A DNA stretch of 64,000 nucleotides, from positions 104,098,001 to 104,162,000 of the forward strand of contig OZ024742.1 in NCBI GenBank assembly GCA_964016885.1, given 5' to 3'. Origin of the DNA: Eledone cirrhosa (Eukaryota). Every line of letters begins with the position of its first letter. Positions within the stretch are counted from its first letter, which is position 1. The notes under the pieces are model-generated. The model made no database searches and was not told the origin of the DNA. It saw nothing but the letters and a program-made list of their open reading frames with translations. The translations under genes were made by a program, and so were the position numbers. Positions 48,167 through 58,216 of this stretch are shown here, in pieces.

Positions 48167-48288
48167 TCAGTAATCAAGTCCATAGCCAAGTCCACTCCAT
48201 CTGTCCGGAACAGGGGGGAAGTATCGATCCATGGCTTCTAAGAACCGACTCTTGTATAATTCAGGAAACACAACCGTTGGCATTTTAG
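48167..48288 (-). CDS. PIKFYVE: PIKfyve terminal coding exon (S)KMPTVVFPELYKSRFLEAMDRYFPPVPDRWSGLGYGLDY*
   Basis: tttcag acceptor, TGA at 48169-48167. Closely resembles the vertebrate PIKfyve C-terminus. Confidence 0.96.
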
Positions 48289-50968
48289 CTGAAATTATAC
48301 AAAAAAATAACAAGATTATGAATACGATTAAATGAAACTACACAGGAGTTGTGGAAATTGTGTAATAGAATTTGAAACAAATCTGTAATTATTATAAAAC
48401 TTACAGGCACCACCTAGAATTCCTGTGGCTTTTACAACCATCTCGAGCTTTTTATCCCAAGTGAATGTTCGAATGTAATCTGAAATATAGATATTGGGAC
48501 AATTAAAATAGCCAATTGGATTCAGCTACAGGTGAAACTCTTTTTTGAAGCAAGTATTTCAAAGGTTATAGCAGTACACTGGTAAGTCATTGTTATTTAG
48601 CCCTAGGTCAGTTCATTCTAGTTGTGATCATCTTGCCTTTATTTCTGGCAGTGTATTTAGCCAGAAGGTGATCTTCAACATGCACTTGATAGATTTGATG
48701 CCATGTGCTGCATGACAGGAATGAAAATTAGTGCATCCAAGACTGAGACACTTGTTCCCTCAAGGAACACTTGTTCCCTCAAGGAAACCTGTGCAGTGTA
48801 CTCTTCATGTGAATGGAGTTCCGCTTAAGCAGGTGGAGAAGTTCAAGTATCTTGAGACCATGGAGGTAGGAGGCTGAATAAAGTGCAATTCTTGCAGGAT
48901 CTGGTGCATTAATACACCAGCTTCAGCATCCAGTAATCAGAAAAAGGGTGGTAGGTGTAAAAGCCAAACTGAATCGACAATGAAGAATAAGAAGGATGAT
49001 GTTATCTAGGTTGACATTATCTATTAAATCCTTCATTTTTAATCCCTTTGATAGCAGCCAACTGATACTGCCCCTGGTTCTATGATACAGAACTGTTTCC
49101 TTTAAAGGGATTATATTTATCTAAAAACCTTCCTTCATAATTTTATGTATGAACCTTTGTTATGATATACCCTCAAAATCAGTTGAATAATTATAAAGTT
49201 CGCTATATTACTAAATTCATCCAAATTTCTGATTATATTCAAAATAATTTGAAAACCATTGGCAGAGTTTTTCATTAGAAATATAGTAAAGAAAGACTTG
49301 TCCTTTTTTTGTAAGGTATGAATGGAAGGATATTTAGCTGATAATTTTAACTGGGTAAGCAACCACACAATAGCTCCCAATTGGTTCATCACGTACATTG
49401 TTGGAATTTTGAATTCCTCATGGTAAGTATATTTTTTTTCAACAAACTTTTTTTTATGGCTTAGGGAAAGAAGAACAGCTCCTATGACCCCTTCAGACTG
49501 GATACTGGGGCTGAGTACTCGAAACAGAATGGAGTATACTAATGGTGCTAAATTTCCAAGTGATGGTATTAAGCCTAATGATAGTTTATGTCTACTACAC
49601 AAGAGCAGGTTCAATCATCCAATAGGCTTGGGTTAACTTGAGGTTTTTGTAGATATATTTGCCAAGGTGGCAGACAGGAAGATAAACATAGAACTACATA
49701 ACTGTGGACTAAGTGGACAGGAAAAAAATTGATTAAAAAAACTCTACTCACCTATAATACCAACCACCAATTCTTTCATTTGATCATCCTGTCCAACCAA
49801 CAAAGAATAATCCATGATGAAATTGCTGGCTAGAAATTTTGAATCACTATCAATAGCCTGAGCTAAGACAGCTTTAGAATGAGGCCTGATATAGAGGGGT
49901 GAGTCAATACTGACTGTAAGAGAGAGAGATACATAGATATAAGAGACAGATAAATAAAACTGAAATTTTATAGACTAGACAACCTTCCCAAGTTAAAGGT
50001 AAAAAAAATGTAATAGGATGCAAGAAGGCAAAGAAGAGGAAGAAGGCAAAGAAGAAGAAGAAGGCAAAGAAGAGGAAGAAGAAGGCAAAGGCAAAGAAGA
50101 AGAAGAAGGCGAAGGCGAAGAAGAAGAAGGCGAATAAGAAGAAGAACCACCACTACCACCATCATCACCATCGCCACCATCTATATCAATAGCCGCAAAA
50201 AAATCATTAATTTTATTACATTGTACCTTAGCAAAACAGTTACAAACATAAAGAACAAAAACCACAACAGTCTTTTGTTTTTTGTTGAGCCGTCATAATA
50301 GTTTTAAAAGTATTCCTATTTTAACCAGTTATTTTCTGGTATCACTGAAAACTTACCTTGAAGAAAATTCTGGTCTAATAACACCTCTTCCTCTTGTTTA
50401 CCAGATAAATTAACTAATCGATTTCGAACAGATCCTTTCAAATCAAATGTCTGGAATTAAAAAAAAATTTTTGACAAACATTTAATAAAGTTGAATAAAA
50501 CAATTCACAATTACGTGGTTGGATGGTTCTACAGATTTATATTTACATATACATGTATAAATTGTAATGAAATGAAAGTGATACCTAATTGTTTCTGTGT
50601 AATATGCTTGTCTAAAGATACAACACAATTACCACAGCAAATTTGAGTGGGATGCTAAGTGAACCTTCTCTGATTTCCCTTCCCCATCAAACCCATACTG
50701 CCCCACCTTAAAACTCACATCTCTGATTCACATTTCCCATCCAACTCAGGCCAACACAGAAAGCCAGACACATGCCACCCTCATGACCCAGCACTTTCTC
50801 TCCCGCAGTGGGATATCTATCTACCCCATCCTCCTCAGCAAATAGCATATAGCTTGAAGAACACACTGAGCAGCCTAGTGCTGGTTGTAAGGAGGTAGTA
50901 CTGGTGCCACAATAATATGCACCCAGCCTACTCTGTAAAGTGGTAGTACCAATGCCACATATATATAT

Positions 50969-51009
<41 letters not shown>

Positions 51010-54000
51010 AAGAGAGAAGGGGGGGGGGGGAGAAAGAGGTATAATCCAATAATCCCAATTGTGGTACCAAGCGGTTTCAGCTTGTATGTTCAGTAAGCCT
51101 TTTCAGCACCACAAACTCTCACTCTTTGTGTGTGCGAGAGAAAGAAGCAGAAAAGAAAACAATGTTGTTCTTTGATAATAAATGGTTATTCAATTGAATA
51201 CCACAATACATATAAAAGGAAAAAAAACTGCAACATTAAGCAACACAGAATTAGAAAATAAAAATAATAATGTATGTTGTTCACCTGAGAGAATTTTCGG
51301 TTATATAATAAGTTCTCCATCACCAACAAATCCTGTTTCATTACTGTACTGGTTTGATTGTTACGAAAACCTATGGTGTAGACTCCAAGTATTTTAGCAA
51401 GAACTGTTGGTTTCTGATAAACAAAATTAAAAAAAAACAAAAAAAACCTTGAAATCTTTATACCGTATTTATGCAACAGCATCCTTTTAGGGTTGATAAA
51501 GTACCAGTTAAGTACTGGGGTCAATATAATCAACTTTCCTCTTCCCTCAAATTGCTGGCCTTGTGCCAAAATTATAAACCAATATTATTATTGGTGTGTG
51601 TTCATTATCAAAATAAATTTCCTGATCAGAAGAGCTGCATTCCACAGTGCAGCAGTTTTTTTTTGTAAATGCACAAACTGCCTGTCTTTTACCATAAACT
51701 TAATTTCACCCAAGCTTTGTGAGTAGAGTGGAAGCTGGTCAGATAGGTTGTACCTGTAATTCAAAGGTCCAGTCTTGTCCCATGCCGATTCTGCCTAAGG
51801 ATTACATAAGGGTATACATATCTATGGTATACTCAGCCACTTTCAAGGTAATTCAATGAGCAAGTAGGCCAGTTGATTGAATAAGTTAATACTCACTGTC
51901 GGACCTGACATGGAGGTGTATGTAAATGCTTTAATTAGGCGGTAATTGATTTGTACTAGAATTTTTAATTACATCTTTTACAATTAGTGCTGGTGCCATG
52001 ATAAAATGCACCCAACCCACGCTGTAAAGTGGTAGTGCCGTACCATCTAAAAGATACCCAGTGCACTCTGTCAGATGGTAGTGGTGGTACTATGAGAAAA
52101 TGAACTTTTGTGAAGTATTTGGTGTTAGGAAGGTTATCTAGACATAGAAACCATGCCAAAATGGAAAGTATGAACAAGATGCAGTCAGCTGACCTACCTG
52201 TCTCACCTCAGAATGTGACATGTCTTAACCCATACAAGCATGGAAAATGGACATAAATTGGTAAGGATAATAATGATGATGGTGATAAACTCCATTATAG
52301 GAAAGATTTTGTAAAGAGAAATTTGAGCCCCCACCAAAATATCATACAAATCAAACCTAACCAACCTAAAACTATCATAAGGAAGGACACATTGGGCCAT
52401 ACAAATCACATTTTATGATCATAAAATCTAAAAAAAGGAAGAACACATTGGATAATGTTTTCATTGATTCGCCAAGTCTGAAAAGAAAAAAGACAGTACG
52501 ATCATGGCTGGAATGCTTGTGATCATAGGTCAGCTGGATCAAGGCTGGAATGCTTGTGATCATAGGTCAGCTGGATCAGGGCTGAGCAACATTAACCAAC
52601 CCTTTCATTACTATATTTCTAATGAAGTACACTGTCTCTGTGTTTGAATTTATTTTGAAAGTAATCCAAAATTTGCAGGAATTTAATAAAATTAAATTTT
52701 TCATTAATACTGTATGTACTCAAATATAAGCCAAACCAAATATAAGCTGACTCCCCTATTTTATGTCTGAGAAATAGGTGAAAATCCAAACCCCATTTAT
52801 TAACCGAGGCAGCTGATCGATACATTGTTCAGATGGTGAATATAAGCTGACCCCGCTCCCCCATTTTACCATCAATGTTTTGGTCACATATTCCTTGGCT
52901 TATATTCAAGTACATATGGTAAGCTGATATTTAGAACATTACTTAACAAAAATTTCTAAAATAAAATCATGGTGGAAGTAAGAATAAACATTTTAAAATG
53001 AGCAGTTTTGTATTATAAATCTAGGGCAGTTTTAGGTGGTTTGGTATTAAAAGGGTTAATCTACAATCTAGTTTATGTTTTTCACACAACAGCTACTTCA
53101 AATCCACGATGATGATGGTGATTTGAAACAGCTGAGTTAGTAAACAATGAGATGCTGCCAAAGACACATCAACAACCTTATCAGTTTTGTTACTAAGTAC
53201 ATCAATGAGGAATAAGCACCATGCAGTCACCTTATATCTTTAGGAGTGATATTATAAACTAGAAACTCATATGAAAAGCTGTATGTTGGTGTGCAGTAAG
53301 AATAAAGAAAAGACTAATATATTTTAGCAAGGAGGAGGAGAAAGATTCTGTACCAGTATTTGATTATTTTTATGAAGAGAGCCATCAAGAATAACATGGA
53401 AGCAACAGAGAGGGCTGAAGAGAAGTGACCAATGGGGTTAGTATATATGAATCCCACTTGAGCACAGACTGAGGCTTGATCAACCTCAGTTGTTAGAGGA
53501 GGATTCTGTGTCAAATGCCAGGTACTACCTTTTCAACTTCAACTCATAGTACATCAATATAAACCTTATCTGAAGAAGCCTCTATGTGGTCATTCAACCT
53601 GCTAAAAAAAGCAACCAAATCTCCCTCAAATGAGACATATTGTATAAAGGAATTCCAGAGACATTATGTTTAGGAGAGGAAAAAAACAGGATGTTCAGGG
53701 TTAGAACACCTTTGGTCATAGGTCTGCTTGATCAGGATTGATCCCGGGTTTTCCTTCTAATTTAATTCAAACAATGCAGAAGACCATTACAAGCCTACCA
53801 ATTTCAGTGATTATTTGTAAGGGCCAAGGTAGCTGCTAGATAGTCACTCAACCTGTTTGAAATAGCAGTTAAATCTTCTTCCATCTTAAAAAAGTGAAGG
53901 ACACATTGAATAATATATGTTTTGAAATAAGACAGGATGGTCACAGCTGAAATGTCTTTGATCAAACGTCTATGAAATCAAGTCAGGCCTGGCTAAGCAA

Positions 54001-57000
54001 TAATAGTTGATTATCTTTATGAAAAGAGCCATCAAAAACAATGTGGAAGCAGCAAAGTGTGCATCTAGATGGCTGTGGTTAATGGGAAGTGACAAGTGAG
54101 GTCAGTATGTATGCCTGCCACTTGGACACTGACTGTGGCTTGGTCAACATTAGTTGGGTCACCTGGATGTTGGTATATGTTGTAAGACCAGAAAAATCTA
54201 GTGACTCCAGAGTACAACATTGATGATGTGACCAAAGTTTTGAATCTGTGTATGTGTAAAGAACATACAAAGAGAAATATACAATAAAAAATATAAGGAA
54301 CTTACTTGTTCTAGGTAAGCTTTTGTAATGTACTGGAAATAGTTGGGGGCGAACACTTGGAAAGAAGCCGCCTCTACATTAGACATCTGCTTCAAAATGA
54401 AACGATTATCTGGAAAATTCAACAGTGAAAAAAAAGACAATATAAGACTGTGTGATTTAGGAGTTCACTTCACAGCCATGTGGTTCTGGGTTCAGTCATG
54501 CTGAGTGGTACCATCAGCATGTGTCTTCTGCTATAGCCTCAGGTTGACCAATGCTTTGTGAATTGGAATTTGGTAAATGGAAACTGCAGAAGCCCATTAT
54601 ATATATATATATATATAATAATAATTGTTTCTACTTTTGGCACAAGGCCAGCAATTTTTCCAGTGTATTACTGGTACTTTATTTTATCGACCCCGTAAGG
54701 ATGAAAGGCAAAGTTAACCTCAGCAGGATTTGAACTCAGATAATAAAGGGCCGTAACTCTTTGCTGCAAAGCATGGCATCCAACTCTCTACCGATACTCC
54801 CAAATAATAATAAATGTGAAGACTAAAATCCGAAGAGGGCTCAATAAGGATAATATATATATAAAAATATATAAAACCGTAGAGCAAAACTTTTTTTTTT
54901 TGTAGTTTCAGAAGATCCTGTTAAGGGTGAAAGCAGCGATTCTTTGCTTAAACTTTAATTTGTTATTTTAATAAATAAATATATATATATTTAGGCTCTG
55001 TAAGTGGCATAGGTTTTGTGTACGCAGTTTGGGCAGCATTCAGCATAGAACCTTTGGCAAATAGTATCTCATAGCTTTCAGAGCTACATAAACCACAGCC
55101 CACATGTCTCTCTGTGTATGAGCACACCTTATGGAGTGTTTTCTGATGAGGGTGAAGGGGACGGATTTCTTCTTAAGGTCCCATACATAGGTGGCCAGTG
55201 CAATTTGGTTTGCTTTGTTCAGTCTTCTAAAGGAGTGGGTATAGACATACCACCGGGTCTTTAAACTTTAAAGTCATGGTGATGTTTTTTGTTGTTGTTG
55301 TTACCTAAGACAGCATTTCATTTGTAATAATATATATATATGTACGTCTGTGTCTTTATGTCATTAAAATAAGTACTGGGGTCAATATGACCGACTAAAT
55401 CAAGGTGGTGCCCAAGCATGGCCGCAGTCTAGTGACTGAAACAAGTAAAACAGTAAACAAGTAAATAAGCAAACAAGATTGTAATCCTTCCCTTTGCCTC
55501 TGAAAGAAATATATTTATTCAAGCATTTTTGTATTAAACCATGCTCACATGTCTGTAACTTCTTAGTTAATAAATGTTTGATTTTATCTCTTGTCTGAAG
55601 AATGTAAGTAAACAACTGTTTGTTAAAATTCCATGTCATTTCTTTTTAATGTATGTAATATGTATATGGATTTGACATCAAAGAAATAGTCTTCTTAATA
55701 AGACTGTATGGACTTGTACCTCCTGATGAAGATGTAGGAGTACCCTCATAATGCATAGTAGATCTTGGACATCTTAAACCTGACAGAGCCCATCCCATCT
55801 CTAGATCAGAATATAGCCAATTCATTCCAGAGAAGGAGAGAGAGAGAAAGTGAGAAAGAGGCTCACCCAATATGTGAATCTTTTGCCATCAACTTTCATC
55901 TATAGTACTATCTAGCTCTATGGGATAAAGATAGAGTTTCAGAAGCTAACAGGGAACTTTTTATATAATTGCAAAAACCTGCTTTTTGAAACTTTGACAT
56001 ACTATATCATGATAAAATACACTTGGAAGATTGCAAGACTGTATGTAAGTGAGATATGGGTCTCTCACTTGGTAGAATGCAAGAATGTACAAAAGCTGAG
56101 TAAACTGTAGCAATGTGAAATAAAGTGTCTTGCTCAAGGAAACAACACATCACTCGGTCTGAGAATTGAACTCACAACCTTTCGATTGCAAGACCAATGC
56201 TCTAACCACTAAGCCATGTGCCTCCATGATAATGGTAATGCTGATGATGATGTTAGTGCTGTGTATTTCAGAGGAAAATTCTATGGAAATATGTATACAT
56301 ACCACAGGTCTTTGAAAAAGCTGATCTAGATTTTCCACCTTTAGCTGACCAGCGTTGACAGTGATTCATTGAGCGAATAAATCTGAAAGAAATGAACAAA
56401 TAACATAAATGAAGTGGTATGAAGATGCATGGCTTAGTGGTTAGAGTATTTGGTTCATGAGATCCCCGTAGTGCACTGTGTGCACTTTATTTCACATTTC
56501 TCCAGTCCACTCAGCTTGCAAATATGATTTATTCCTGTAATTCAAAAGACCAGCCATATCACATTCGTTGTCACGCTGAATCCCTTTGAGAACTACGTTA
56601 AGGGTACACATATCTATGAAATATTCAGCTACATGCACGTTAATTTCACAAGCAAACTGTTTCACTGATCTAACAACTGAAACACTTATGTTAACATCTA
56701 TATTAATCTTTAGCACGCTAGTAATTTTTATGAGTTATTTTTCTTGAGACTATTAAGGGGAGGTTACTCTTATGGTGCATTTTGTCGGCCACAGCATGCT
56801 GAAGATTAAGAGGCCTTTCATTGCGAGAATAAAAAAAACAAGACTTTACTGTTACTTACACATCTTCTCCAGCTGGGAATACCAAAGAGCGTAGCTCTCT
56901 GAACTGCTCTGCGAAATGCACACGACAATAGAAACGAGATGAAGGATCACAAAACTCTAGAAAATGGAAACAAACCAAAGTAACAGTAATTAATGAAAAA

Positions 57001-58216
57001 TATGTTGTTGCTATTAAAGAGAATATAATTGTTTCAACTATTAACCCGTAAGCATTTACATTACGCTATATTTACTATTGTATTTTTGAGGTTAAGGCTT
57101 TATCTTACATAATTATTTCACATAATATCGAATCTACGAAATTTTGATGTTATTTATTTTGAGAACAATACCTTAACATTAGTATGAGCAGCCAGTTATG
57201 GCCAGTTTGGACAGAAAGAGGTGAGAGAATTCTGGCCAGATATGGCCGGTTTAAATGCTAAATAGTTAAACTCTCATCCTTAGAGGTGAAATATTTATTT
57301 GATATTTATATCTACACTGCATGTAGGATCAGTTTCACCTTCAATTGTCATTAATTACCTTATTTCTAGATGTGTACATGTGACATAATAGATCATCTCA
57401 TCAGTTTTTCTGACCACTTTCCATTCTGGCATGGACTAGACATGTAAAAGGGACATTAAATGATGATGAAGATGATCAAAGATGTCACATGTGGATATAA
57501 ACATTATTATCTTAACACTGAGTTCAAATCCCGCCGAGGTTAACTTTGCCTTTCATCCTTACGGGATCGATAAAATAAAGTACCAGTAATGTACTGGGTA
57601 ATTGATGGCCTTGTGCCAAAAGTAGAAACAATTATTATCTTAACACTTTATGACTATATTTCTAATGAAAGACACTGCCTATGTTTTTTAATTAATTTTG
57701 AAAATAATTAAAAATTTGAAGAGATTTGGTAAAATAAACTAACTTCCTCATTATTAAATTGGTATTTGGAACATAACTTAACAAGGTTCTTACAAAAATA
57801 TTGTTATGGAAGGTTTTGATTTAAAAATAAAAATTTTGTATTGAGAGGTTTTGTATAAGAAAATATGGTGGCTTCAGGGTTAATAAGTTTATAATTTTTC
57901 ATAAATTGTGAATAATTTCACATATATATGTTTATATATATTTAATAAACACACACACTCTCTCTCTCTCTTTCTTTGCATAAAAGGTGGGTTGAAGAAG
58001 AAGCAACGAAACAATTAGAAGAAACATGAGGATAACAAAAGATGATTTGAAAGAAGGAAGAGAACTGGAAGGAGGAAAAGGAAATTGAAGAAATGCTGAT
58101 ATGAAGATAAAAAATAATGAAAAACTTACGGATTTCTATATGTGGGTTAATGGCTAGTTTACAGGGTTTTGTCTTCTCCCCATCCACAGGTGTAGAGCTA
58201 CTTCCATCACTAACAT
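48167..58216 (-). CDS. PIKFYVE: PIKfyve/FAB1 1-phosphatidylinositol-3-phosphate 5-kinase, 3' portion (9 exons; 5' part continues beyond 58216)
   Basis: Hand-spliced exons 58216-58130, 56956-56860, 56382-56303, 54409-54306, 51413-51285, 50450-50357, 49913-49752, 48479-48405, 48288-48167. All are GT-AG and all phases join. Translation contains GGKS, DNRFILKQM, LAKILGVY, DLLVMENL, FDLKGS, MDYSLLVG, GIIDYIRTFTWDKKLE and KMPTVV, which are diagnostic of Fab1/PIKfyve. Confidence 0.97.
48405..48479 (-). CDS. PIKFYVE: PIKfyve exon (D)YIRTFTWDKKLEMVVKATGILGGA, activation loop
   Basis: tttcag acceptor, gtaag donor, 75 nt. TFTWDKKLE is the type III PIPK signature. Confidence 0.97.
48690..48965 (+). mobile_element. 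RTE LINE RT fragment in a PIKfyve intron
   Basis: GMKISASKTETLV..RKPVQCTLHVNGVPLKQVEKFKYL. Confidence 0.8.
49752..49913 (-). CDS. PIKFYVE: PIKfyve exon (V)SIDSPLYIRPHSKAVLAQAIDSDSKFLASNFIMDYSLLVGQDDQMKELVVGII(D)
   Basis: ttacag acceptor, gtgagt donor, 162 nt. MDYSLL catalytic motif. Confidence 0.97.
50357..50450 (-). CDS. PIKFYVE: PIKfyve exon TFDLKGSVRNRLVNLSGKQEEEVLLDQNFLQ
   Basis: ttccag acceptor, gtaag donor, 94 nt. DLKGS motif of PIP kinases. Confidence 0.96.
51059..51114 (-). ncRNA. Type I hammerhead ribozyme with one core substitution (PIKfyve intron, sense strand)
   Basis: ttgtggtg-CTGAAAA-GGCTT(11 nt)AAGCT-GAAA-CC gctt GG-TA-ccacaa. A more decayed copy lies at ~15478-15530. Confidence 0.7.
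51285..51413 (-). CDS. PIKFYVE: PIKfyve exon KPTVLAKILGVYTIGFRNNQTSTVMKQDLLVMENLLYNRKFSQ
   Basis: atcag acceptor, gtgaa donor, 129 nt. Lies within ORF 51186-51569. Confidence 0.95.
54306..54409 (-). CDS. PIKFYVE: PIKfyve exon (D)NRFILKQMSNVEAASFQVFAPNYFQYITKAYLEQ, catalytic lysine
   Basis: ttccag acceptor, gtaag donor, 104 nt. Lies within ORF 54198-54440. Confidence 0.95.
54995..55275 (-). mobile_element. Penelope-like element GIY-YIG endonuclease C-terminal fragment
   Basis: KTRWYVYTHSFRRLNKANQIALATYVWDLKKKSVPFTL...CGLCSSESYEIL resembles the PLE pattern FK.R...H..SF...LS.YIW.LK...C.LC..EK. Confidence 0.7.
56093..56226 (-). mobile_element. tRNA-derived SINE, inverted relative to the SINE at 56420-56700
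   Basis: gagaattgaactcacaacc..ctctaaccactaagccatgtgcctcca. Near-identical copy at ~38345-38481. Confidence 0.85.
56303..56382 (-). CDS. PIKFYVE: PIKfyve exon FIRSMNHCQRWSAKGGKSRSAFSKTC(D), glycine-rich loop
   Basis: tttcag acceptor, gtatgt donor, 80 nt. FIRS...W..GGKS motif. Confidence 0.95.
56860..56956 (-). CDS. PIKFYVE: PIKfyve exon (Q)FCDPSSRFYCRVHFAEQFRELRSLVFPAGED(V)
   Basis: ttctag acceptor, gtaagt donor, 97 nt. Similar to QFSD..AKFYC. Confidence 0.93.
57042..57269. mobile_element. TTAA-flanked MITE (piggyBac-like termini)
   Basis: ttaacccgtaagcattta...taaatgctaaatagttaa. Related termini at 28327, 28920, 53050 and 62900. Confidence 0.6.
57503..57647 (+). mobile_element. Young 5'-truncated SINE with a perfect 17-bp TSD
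   Basis: ATTATTATCTTAACACT at 57503-57519 and 57631-57647 flanks the SINE body. Confidence 0.9.
58130..58216 (-). CDS. PIKFYVE: PIKfyve exon (D)VSDGSSSTPVDGEKTKPCKLAINPHIEI(Q)
   Basis: tttag acceptor, gtaag donor, 87 nt. NPHIEI matches the NPHVEL segment before the kinase domain. Phase 1 joins the next exon. Confidence 0.88.

Follow-up and report, generated by a model that had tools for sequence, protein, structure and literature searches.

Does the arginine encoded in the glycine-rich loop of PIKfyve in the octopod Eledone cirrhosa have to be edited back to glycine in the mRNA, or is it a residue with which the kinase of coleoid cephalopods simply works? The question is raised by a single exon in the window, by which we mean the whole stretch of 64,000 nucleotides that was analysed and whose positions are used throughout. 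A first-pass annotation had read the loop as GGKS-R instead of GGKS-G and suggested that A-to-I editing may restore the glycine or tune the loop by tissue. As argued below, the substitution is real and lineage-wide in a known gene, and on comparative grounds the arginine is probably fixed and tolerated, in a kinase that likely works unedited and with negligible editing. The two features in question are these.

56303..56382, minus strand: PIKfyve coding exon of 80 nt, with the glycine-rich loop of the kinase N-lobe (AG/GT borders, homology)
56325..56327, minus strand: AGA (Arg) codon at a position that is usually Gly; editing of the A at 56327 would yield GGA

Read on the minus strand, the exon (56382-56303) follows a pyrimidine-rich acceptor, tttctttcag, and is followed by the donor gtatgt. 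Its loop codons are GGT GGA AAA TCT AGA TCA, the first A of AGA being the plus-strand T at 56327. This A sits in a U-A-G triplet, and A-to-G there turns AGA into GGA, so the claim that one edit would give glycine is correct as far as the code goes. The arginine is located two residues past the loop lysine, where the turn enters the next strand, and the exon aligns (E 0.004) with human PIKfyve (PDB 7K2V chain P), where the human sequence reads GGKSG.

The identification of the gene as PIKfyve can now be regarded as secure. Eight more of its exons lie in the window, all with GT-AG borders and supported by homology.

58130..58216, minus strand: PIKfyve exon
56860..56956, minus strand: PIKfyve exon upstream of the loop exon
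54306..54409, minus strand: PIKfyve exon with the catalytic-lysine strand
51285..51413, minus strand: PIKfyve exon that has the hinge motif (F>L in coleoids) and an R>T change
50357..50450, minus strand: PIKfyve exon containing DLKGS and two coleoid changes, E>Q and L>F
49752..49913, minus strand: PIKfyve exon with MDYSLL
48405..48479, minus strand: PIKfyve exon with the activation segment
48167..48288, minus strand: last coding exon of PIKfyve, to the stop codon

Joined, the nine 3' exons (58216 to 48167) give an open frame of 315 amino acids and a stop, 300/315 (95%) being identical to PIKfyve of O. sinensis, and the frame is intact through the catalytic motifs (strand Lys, DLKGS, MDYSLL, IIDY). 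The kinase domain is nearest to type III PIP5K, FYVE and CCT-like domains are present, and the whole kinase domain of a coleoid relative aligns with 7K2V at E 4e-105. The entire gene has about 44 exons and is split, with its parts in order, over three contigs: residues 1-673 are on contig C1657, 674-1738 on C833 and 1784-2100 in the window at 48167-58216, and residues 1739-1783 were not found. The remaining 5' part is absent from the 200 kb beyond the window, and a gap of 200 N lies about 970 bases past the window's end. Given the order of the parts, the two small contigs (C1657 and C833) belong at this gap. The idea that the 3' exons are an orphan duplicate was rejected, since the 5' part was found on these contigs. 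The loop exon and a second kinase exon have one match each in the assembly, hence the gene is single copy; PIKfyve is a housekeeping kinase.

Two details of the gene may be recorded here. At 56831, in an intron, all three runs of sample S1 are one base short in a homopolymer, a possible small assembly error. Near 48430 (exon 48479-48405) the residue of octopods is Ala, at a position of the activation segment that we take to be the human autophosphorylation site S2053; this position is variable, with Ser in 52/79 representatives.

The Arg codon itself is genomic. It had been pointed out that GGA in genomic reads would indicate an assembly error or a SNP; no genomic G allele at 56327 is seen in the contig of run X1, which spans 56258-56412 with both intron flanks at depth 14 and shows 0 differences. 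This exact unspliced contig and the minus-strand reading both bear out the proposed GGKS-R loop. Run X1 is the sole run covering the region of 56327 and may be the assembly's own source. One could therefore still point to this circumstance, and to the splitting of the gene over three contigs, in favour of an assembly error, a private SNP or a pseudogene copy. We find such an explanation hardly credible, because the same Arg is found in O. sinensis, O. vulgaris, O. bimaculoides, Argonauta hians and a more distant coleoid; this sharing refutes it, and the gene is single copy with an open frame.

How the other cephalopods came to light deserves some detail. Two homolog searches returned 235 proteins, of which 158 match the loop pattern. 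Among these motif-bearing close homologs the loop position is Gly in 155 and Arg in 3, which overstates the conservation of Gly, since the 158 are the top-ranked matches. The Arg proteins are those of Argonauta hians and O. sinensis and a Logan protein of the more distant coleoid; O. vulgaris and O. bimaculoides were added by cluster look-ups. Overall identity of the Logan protein is 70% to octopods and about 50% to other molluscs, and it groups with octopods in the tree with support 1.0; judging from this we read it as another coleoid, probably a decapodiform. Arginine is common to all the coleoid PIKfyve sequences that were found, namely four octopods and one further coleoid. As for the opposite state, Gly is near-invariant at the site in 27 non-cephalopod molluscs and is present in 81/81 non-coleoid representatives of the kinase comparison set (human PIP4K2A also has it), in agreement with the proposal that Arg is non-ancestral. 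The first-pass annotation had held that Arg in non-editing molluscs would speak against editing; it is in none of the non-cephalopod mollusc proteins found.

The homolog searches yielded no protein named Nautilus, and P0137, considered as a possible Nautilus sequence, was rejected because it is 87% identical to Solemya. Short cephalopod-like fragments bearing Gly were absent from the best 120 of 133 matches (top identity 74%), and a second fragment search gave 14 matches (top identity 64%), none of them cephalopod-like. In P0154, an annotated bivalve copy from Sinanodonta woodiana, the loop Lys is replaced by Asn and the Gly is retained.

Given such conservation of Gly, it can be proposed, following the harm-permitting model (PMC6881472, in the part of it available), that the Arg enzyme is dead and is repaired by near-complete editing to Gly in all tissues. 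In our opinion this is very improbable. Three full-length forms (P0161, P0242 and P0249), with frames of 2057-2105 aa, are present on 10 Logan contigs, of which the longest for each form measures 7.4-10 kb, and all read Arg. Since these contigs hold an uninterrupted frame and the gene has so many exons, they are likely cDNA. Logan contigs keep the majority allele and drop minority variants, and thus their Arg argues against near-complete editing, in those samples only. Recoding that is both ubiquitous and high is also rare, the available portion of PMC9068888 placing 206/77,082 squid recoding sites in the robust ubiquitous-high class.

A further argument against obligatory repair comes from outside the molluscs, where Lys and Arg occur in unrelated lineages. 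Among the best 150 PIKfyve/Fab1 representatives of the search, clustered at 50% identity, the position is Gly in 139, Lys in 6, Arg in 4 and unaligned in 1, and Asn, which the first-pass annotation names for plant FAB1, is found in none. Strict harm permission supposes that the unedited residue is not tolerated elsewhere, whereas nine of the 150 are non-coleoids with Arg or Lys (P0265, P0291, P0295, P0316, P0351, P0355, P0357, P0369 and P0386). Arg is carried by a starfish, Acanthaster planci, and a fungus, Malassezia sp.; Lys by a mite, Dinothrombium tinctorium, and by the fungi Zopfochytrium polystomum and a Microbotryomycetes; the nine include four further eukaryotes. We also built a tree from 155 kinase domains after masking the site (the unaligned protein was left out and six were added). 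Parsimony on this tree counts 9 changes at the loop position, that is, basic residues arose about nine times. By one step Gly reaches eight residues, and the appearance of only Arg and Lys in this sample suggests that a basic side chain is here a selected-for alternative. No residue covarying with Arg/Lys was found in 332 tests beyond three related coleoid or mite-like rows.

The Arg cases outside coleoids are not perfectly clean, because starfish have ADAR and some fungi, according to partial accounts that include a report in Microbotryum, edit A-to-I without ADAR in some stages. A Lys codon, for its part, needs two A-to-G edits to become Gly. With a starfish, a mite and several fungi all carrying Arg or Lys, the coleoid arginine is likely a lasting, tolerated change and not an error that editing repairs.

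The other residues that coleoids share are relevant to the same question. Measured against the 81 non-coleoid representatives (123 conserved kinase columns and 213 other columns), coleoid-shared changes occur in 8/123 conserved kinase columns versus 6/213 elsewhere in the gene, a difference that is not significant (p 0.15). Seventeen other non-cephalopod groups have 0-4 kinase-domain changes and a two-member crinoid group has 9. Only 2 of the eight coleoid kinase changes are A-to-G restorable, the loop Arg and the following one.

54405..54407, minus strand: AAT (Asn) in place of the Asp found in most homologs; the second coleoid change that A-to-G could restore

Asn at this second site is also found in oysters, and in 12/150 representatives. 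The remaining 6 are not editable: F>L in the hinge (51308), R>T (51377), E>Q (50372), L>F (50366), S>F (48268) and L>P (48217). The coleoid kinase pocket may differ in inhibitor sensitivity. Gene-wide, relative to the 27 molluscs, 4/37 and 7/61 changes are A-to-G restorable, against 2 and 4 in the same sets for the mirror type, T-to-C (p 0.69 and 0.55); no gene-wide excess of editable changes was found in this comparison. Locally, a stretch of 23 codons contains four restorable changes (S>N, R>H, G>R, D>N), and 3/5 changes in the loop exon are restorable (p 0.009, or 0.048 conditioned on the site, both post hoc).

ADAR prefers a 5' U and a 3' G, and one edit at 56327 would restore the ancestral residue in just this context. 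This and the clustering of restorable changes around the site are in line with conserved neural recoding, in which ADAR would turn a sizeable share of transcripts to Gly in nerves, with both loop forms there and mostly Arg elsewhere; this is the tuning by tissue of the first-pass annotation. Several statements in the accessible parts of the literature are also favourable. Conserved sites resist A>G reversion, which fits an Arg kept across coleoids, and tolerance of both residues, evident here, is named as a prerequisite for adaptive editing (PMC8382921). Housekeeping genes can be neurally edited (PMC9068888). G-loop sequence sets PI5P4K activity (PMC3749867). Robust recoding is 91% neural in PMC9068888, as far as that source is available, and since 94% of squid non-neural recoding sites are under 1% there, PIKfyve as an edited housekeeping kinase would be mostly Arg outside nerves, a point in favour of a tolerated Arg. 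In its fullest form the proposal would be a coleoid-wide neural Arg/Gly switch of the loop, possibly together with S>N, R>H and D>N, that sets PI(3,5)P2 output by tissue or temperature.

We consider neural recoding of the loop distinctly unlikely, and the coleoid-wide switch no less so, primarily because of low base rates. Restorative sites are indeed edited more often than synonymous ones, and more often and more strongly than others (PMC6881472 and PMC8382921, in the portions available); their median level is under 2.5%, and 13% of squid restorative sites are above 20% (PMC6881472, same portion). First positions of AGA codons are edited at all in 4-10% of cases in six coleoids (PMC8382921 ST6 / ST7, tables that may cover non-identical sets). 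The triplet context adds little. According to the codon counts of table ST7 in PMC8382921, T is the last base of 48% of octopus Ser codons, and 47-67% of one-step Gly>Arg changes produce an AGR codon; therefore AGA in a UAG triplet is roughly a coin-flip and weak evidence of editing, even if 15/272 adenosines in these exons have UAG context.

The structure of the RNA around the site has to be considered too.

56320..56353, minus strand: predicted short 7-bp stem (56353-56347 with 56326-56320), from folding, the target A unpaired beside it
56419..56517, no strand assigned: high-copy repeat, SINE-like by inspection, in the upstream intron, one inverted arm
56093..56227, no strand assigned: copy of the same repeat in opposite orientation, in the intron downstream; pairing with the upstream copy, which would loop out the exon, is predicted

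The target A is predicted to be unpaired (P 0.79), and its local pairing in the spliced RNA ranks 149 of 272 adenosines, an average value that does not help neural recoding. In the pre-mRNA, the inverted arms are 56196-56227/56419-56450 (84%) and 56093-56127/56483-56517 (89%), the predicted fold of the repeat copies around the loop exon has a z of -3.0, and among 43 internal exons the bracket comes first at a range of 250 nt and third at 500 nt. The bracket is unlikely to be as old as the Arg substitution and is probably younger, which again disfavours a recoding conserved across coleoids. By the predicted fold it could attract ADAR in this species. Hence one may envisage a fixed, tolerated Arg with weak bystander editing of a few percent, functionless and drawn by the inverted-repeat stem, in Eledone. 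The arms, the fold and the first rank among 43 exons suit this scenario, and the available text of PMC9068888 describes recoding at low frequency as a side effect of ADAR targets close by. Nevertheless, the exon would be in the loop and not in the stem, with the unpaired target A beside only 7 bp. We think bystander editing unlikely, if somewhat less so than neural recoding. A second inverted pair, at 54587-54739 and 57518-57638 (80 nt at 94%, 39 nt at 97%), brackets the exons 56956-56860 and 56382-56303 and could favour skipping or back-splicing.

We return to a fixed and tolerated arginine as the preferred explanation. In the ancestor of the coleoids a Gly codon presumably turned into AGA, probably through a G-to-A transition, and was kept thereafter. 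Standing where the glycine-rich turn ends, the long and flexible basic side chain likely points toward ATP or the lipid phosphates and would be compatible with catalysis, as the repeated origin of Arg and Lys suggests; jointly with the change in the hinge, it may affect the Km for ATP or the turnover. A-to-I editing at 56327, if there is any, would on this view be incidental and at a low level. It should be admitted that the strong conservation of Gly, the clustering of restorable changes and the strongest repeat bracket within 250 nt count against this explanation. Still, the suggestion that editing is needed or likely at this site is not supported: basic residues arose there about nine times, ten cDNA-like coleoid contigs read Arg, most coleoid kinase changes are not A-to-G restorable, and the UAG context is what chance would often give. 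On the comparative evidence, editing at 56327 is not required to explain the Arg, and the position is a candidate member of the well-described class of restorative sites.

We found no literature on PIKfyve RNA editing in cephalopods, and published editome tables may already record the site. FYV1, PIKfyve and fab1 had no match in the supplement of PMC8382921, a supplement without the site tables S4/S5, and PIKfyve had none in the supplement of PMC4384741 that was examined. The GGKSG motif was not found in the papers matched on PIKfyve and the glycine-rich loop, nor was information on the loop in the available part of PMC13534755.

If the preferred explanation is true, its import is modest: the last Gly of the PIKfyve loop has repeatedly evolved a basic alternative, which is useful for understanding the pocket of PIKfyve as a drug target, and a conserved Gly that reads AGA in a cephalopod is not, by that alone, evidence of editing. 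If, on the other hand, the site were strongly edited in neurons, both loop forms could be expressed and compared, so that an assayable enzyme would offer a clean single-site test in the debate between adaptive and harm-permitting editing.

How does this locus compare with known systems? With PIKfyve/Fab1 (type III, PF01504 with FYVE, DEP and CCT-like domains; 7K2V) the Eledone gene has in common the full domain set and all kinase exons, and it differs by Arg at the last Gly of the loop and by seven more coleoid-shared changes in conserved kinase columns, the hinge F>L among them. From the restorative coleoid recoding sites, as described in the accessible parts of Jiang and Zhang (PMC6881472) and Shoshan et al. 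(PMC8382921), comes the definition under which 56327 is a potential site: a genomic A, a nonsynonymous change, and A>G leading to the outgroup residue. According to the latter source, restorative does not necessarily mean harm-permitting. Most of those sites are weakly edited, with the low median given above, whereas the unedited residue of the PIKfyve candidate recurs in unrelated lineages.

The turn is the counterpart of the glycine-rich loop of protein kinases and is disordered in the PIP5K1A crystal (PMC4570271, available part). In the portion of Clarke and Irvine (PMC3749867) at hand, G-loop differences explain much of the activity range of the PI5P4K isoforms, and by our own count from the catalytic Lys, PI5P4K-gamma has Asp at the equivalent position. 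There, several loop residues differ, the residue in question is acidic and the proteins are paralogs; in PIKfyve a single-copy ortholog differs by one basic residue. Finally, at the position aligned with PI5P4K-beta F205L and the PIP5K MNNxL hinge, the hinge Phe is replaced by Leu in coleoid PIKfyve, and F205L keeps ATP-dependent activity (10.1101/2020.06.09.137430, in its available part). The coleoid hinge F>L is a change separate from the loop Arg and non-editable, with a putative effect in PIKfyve.
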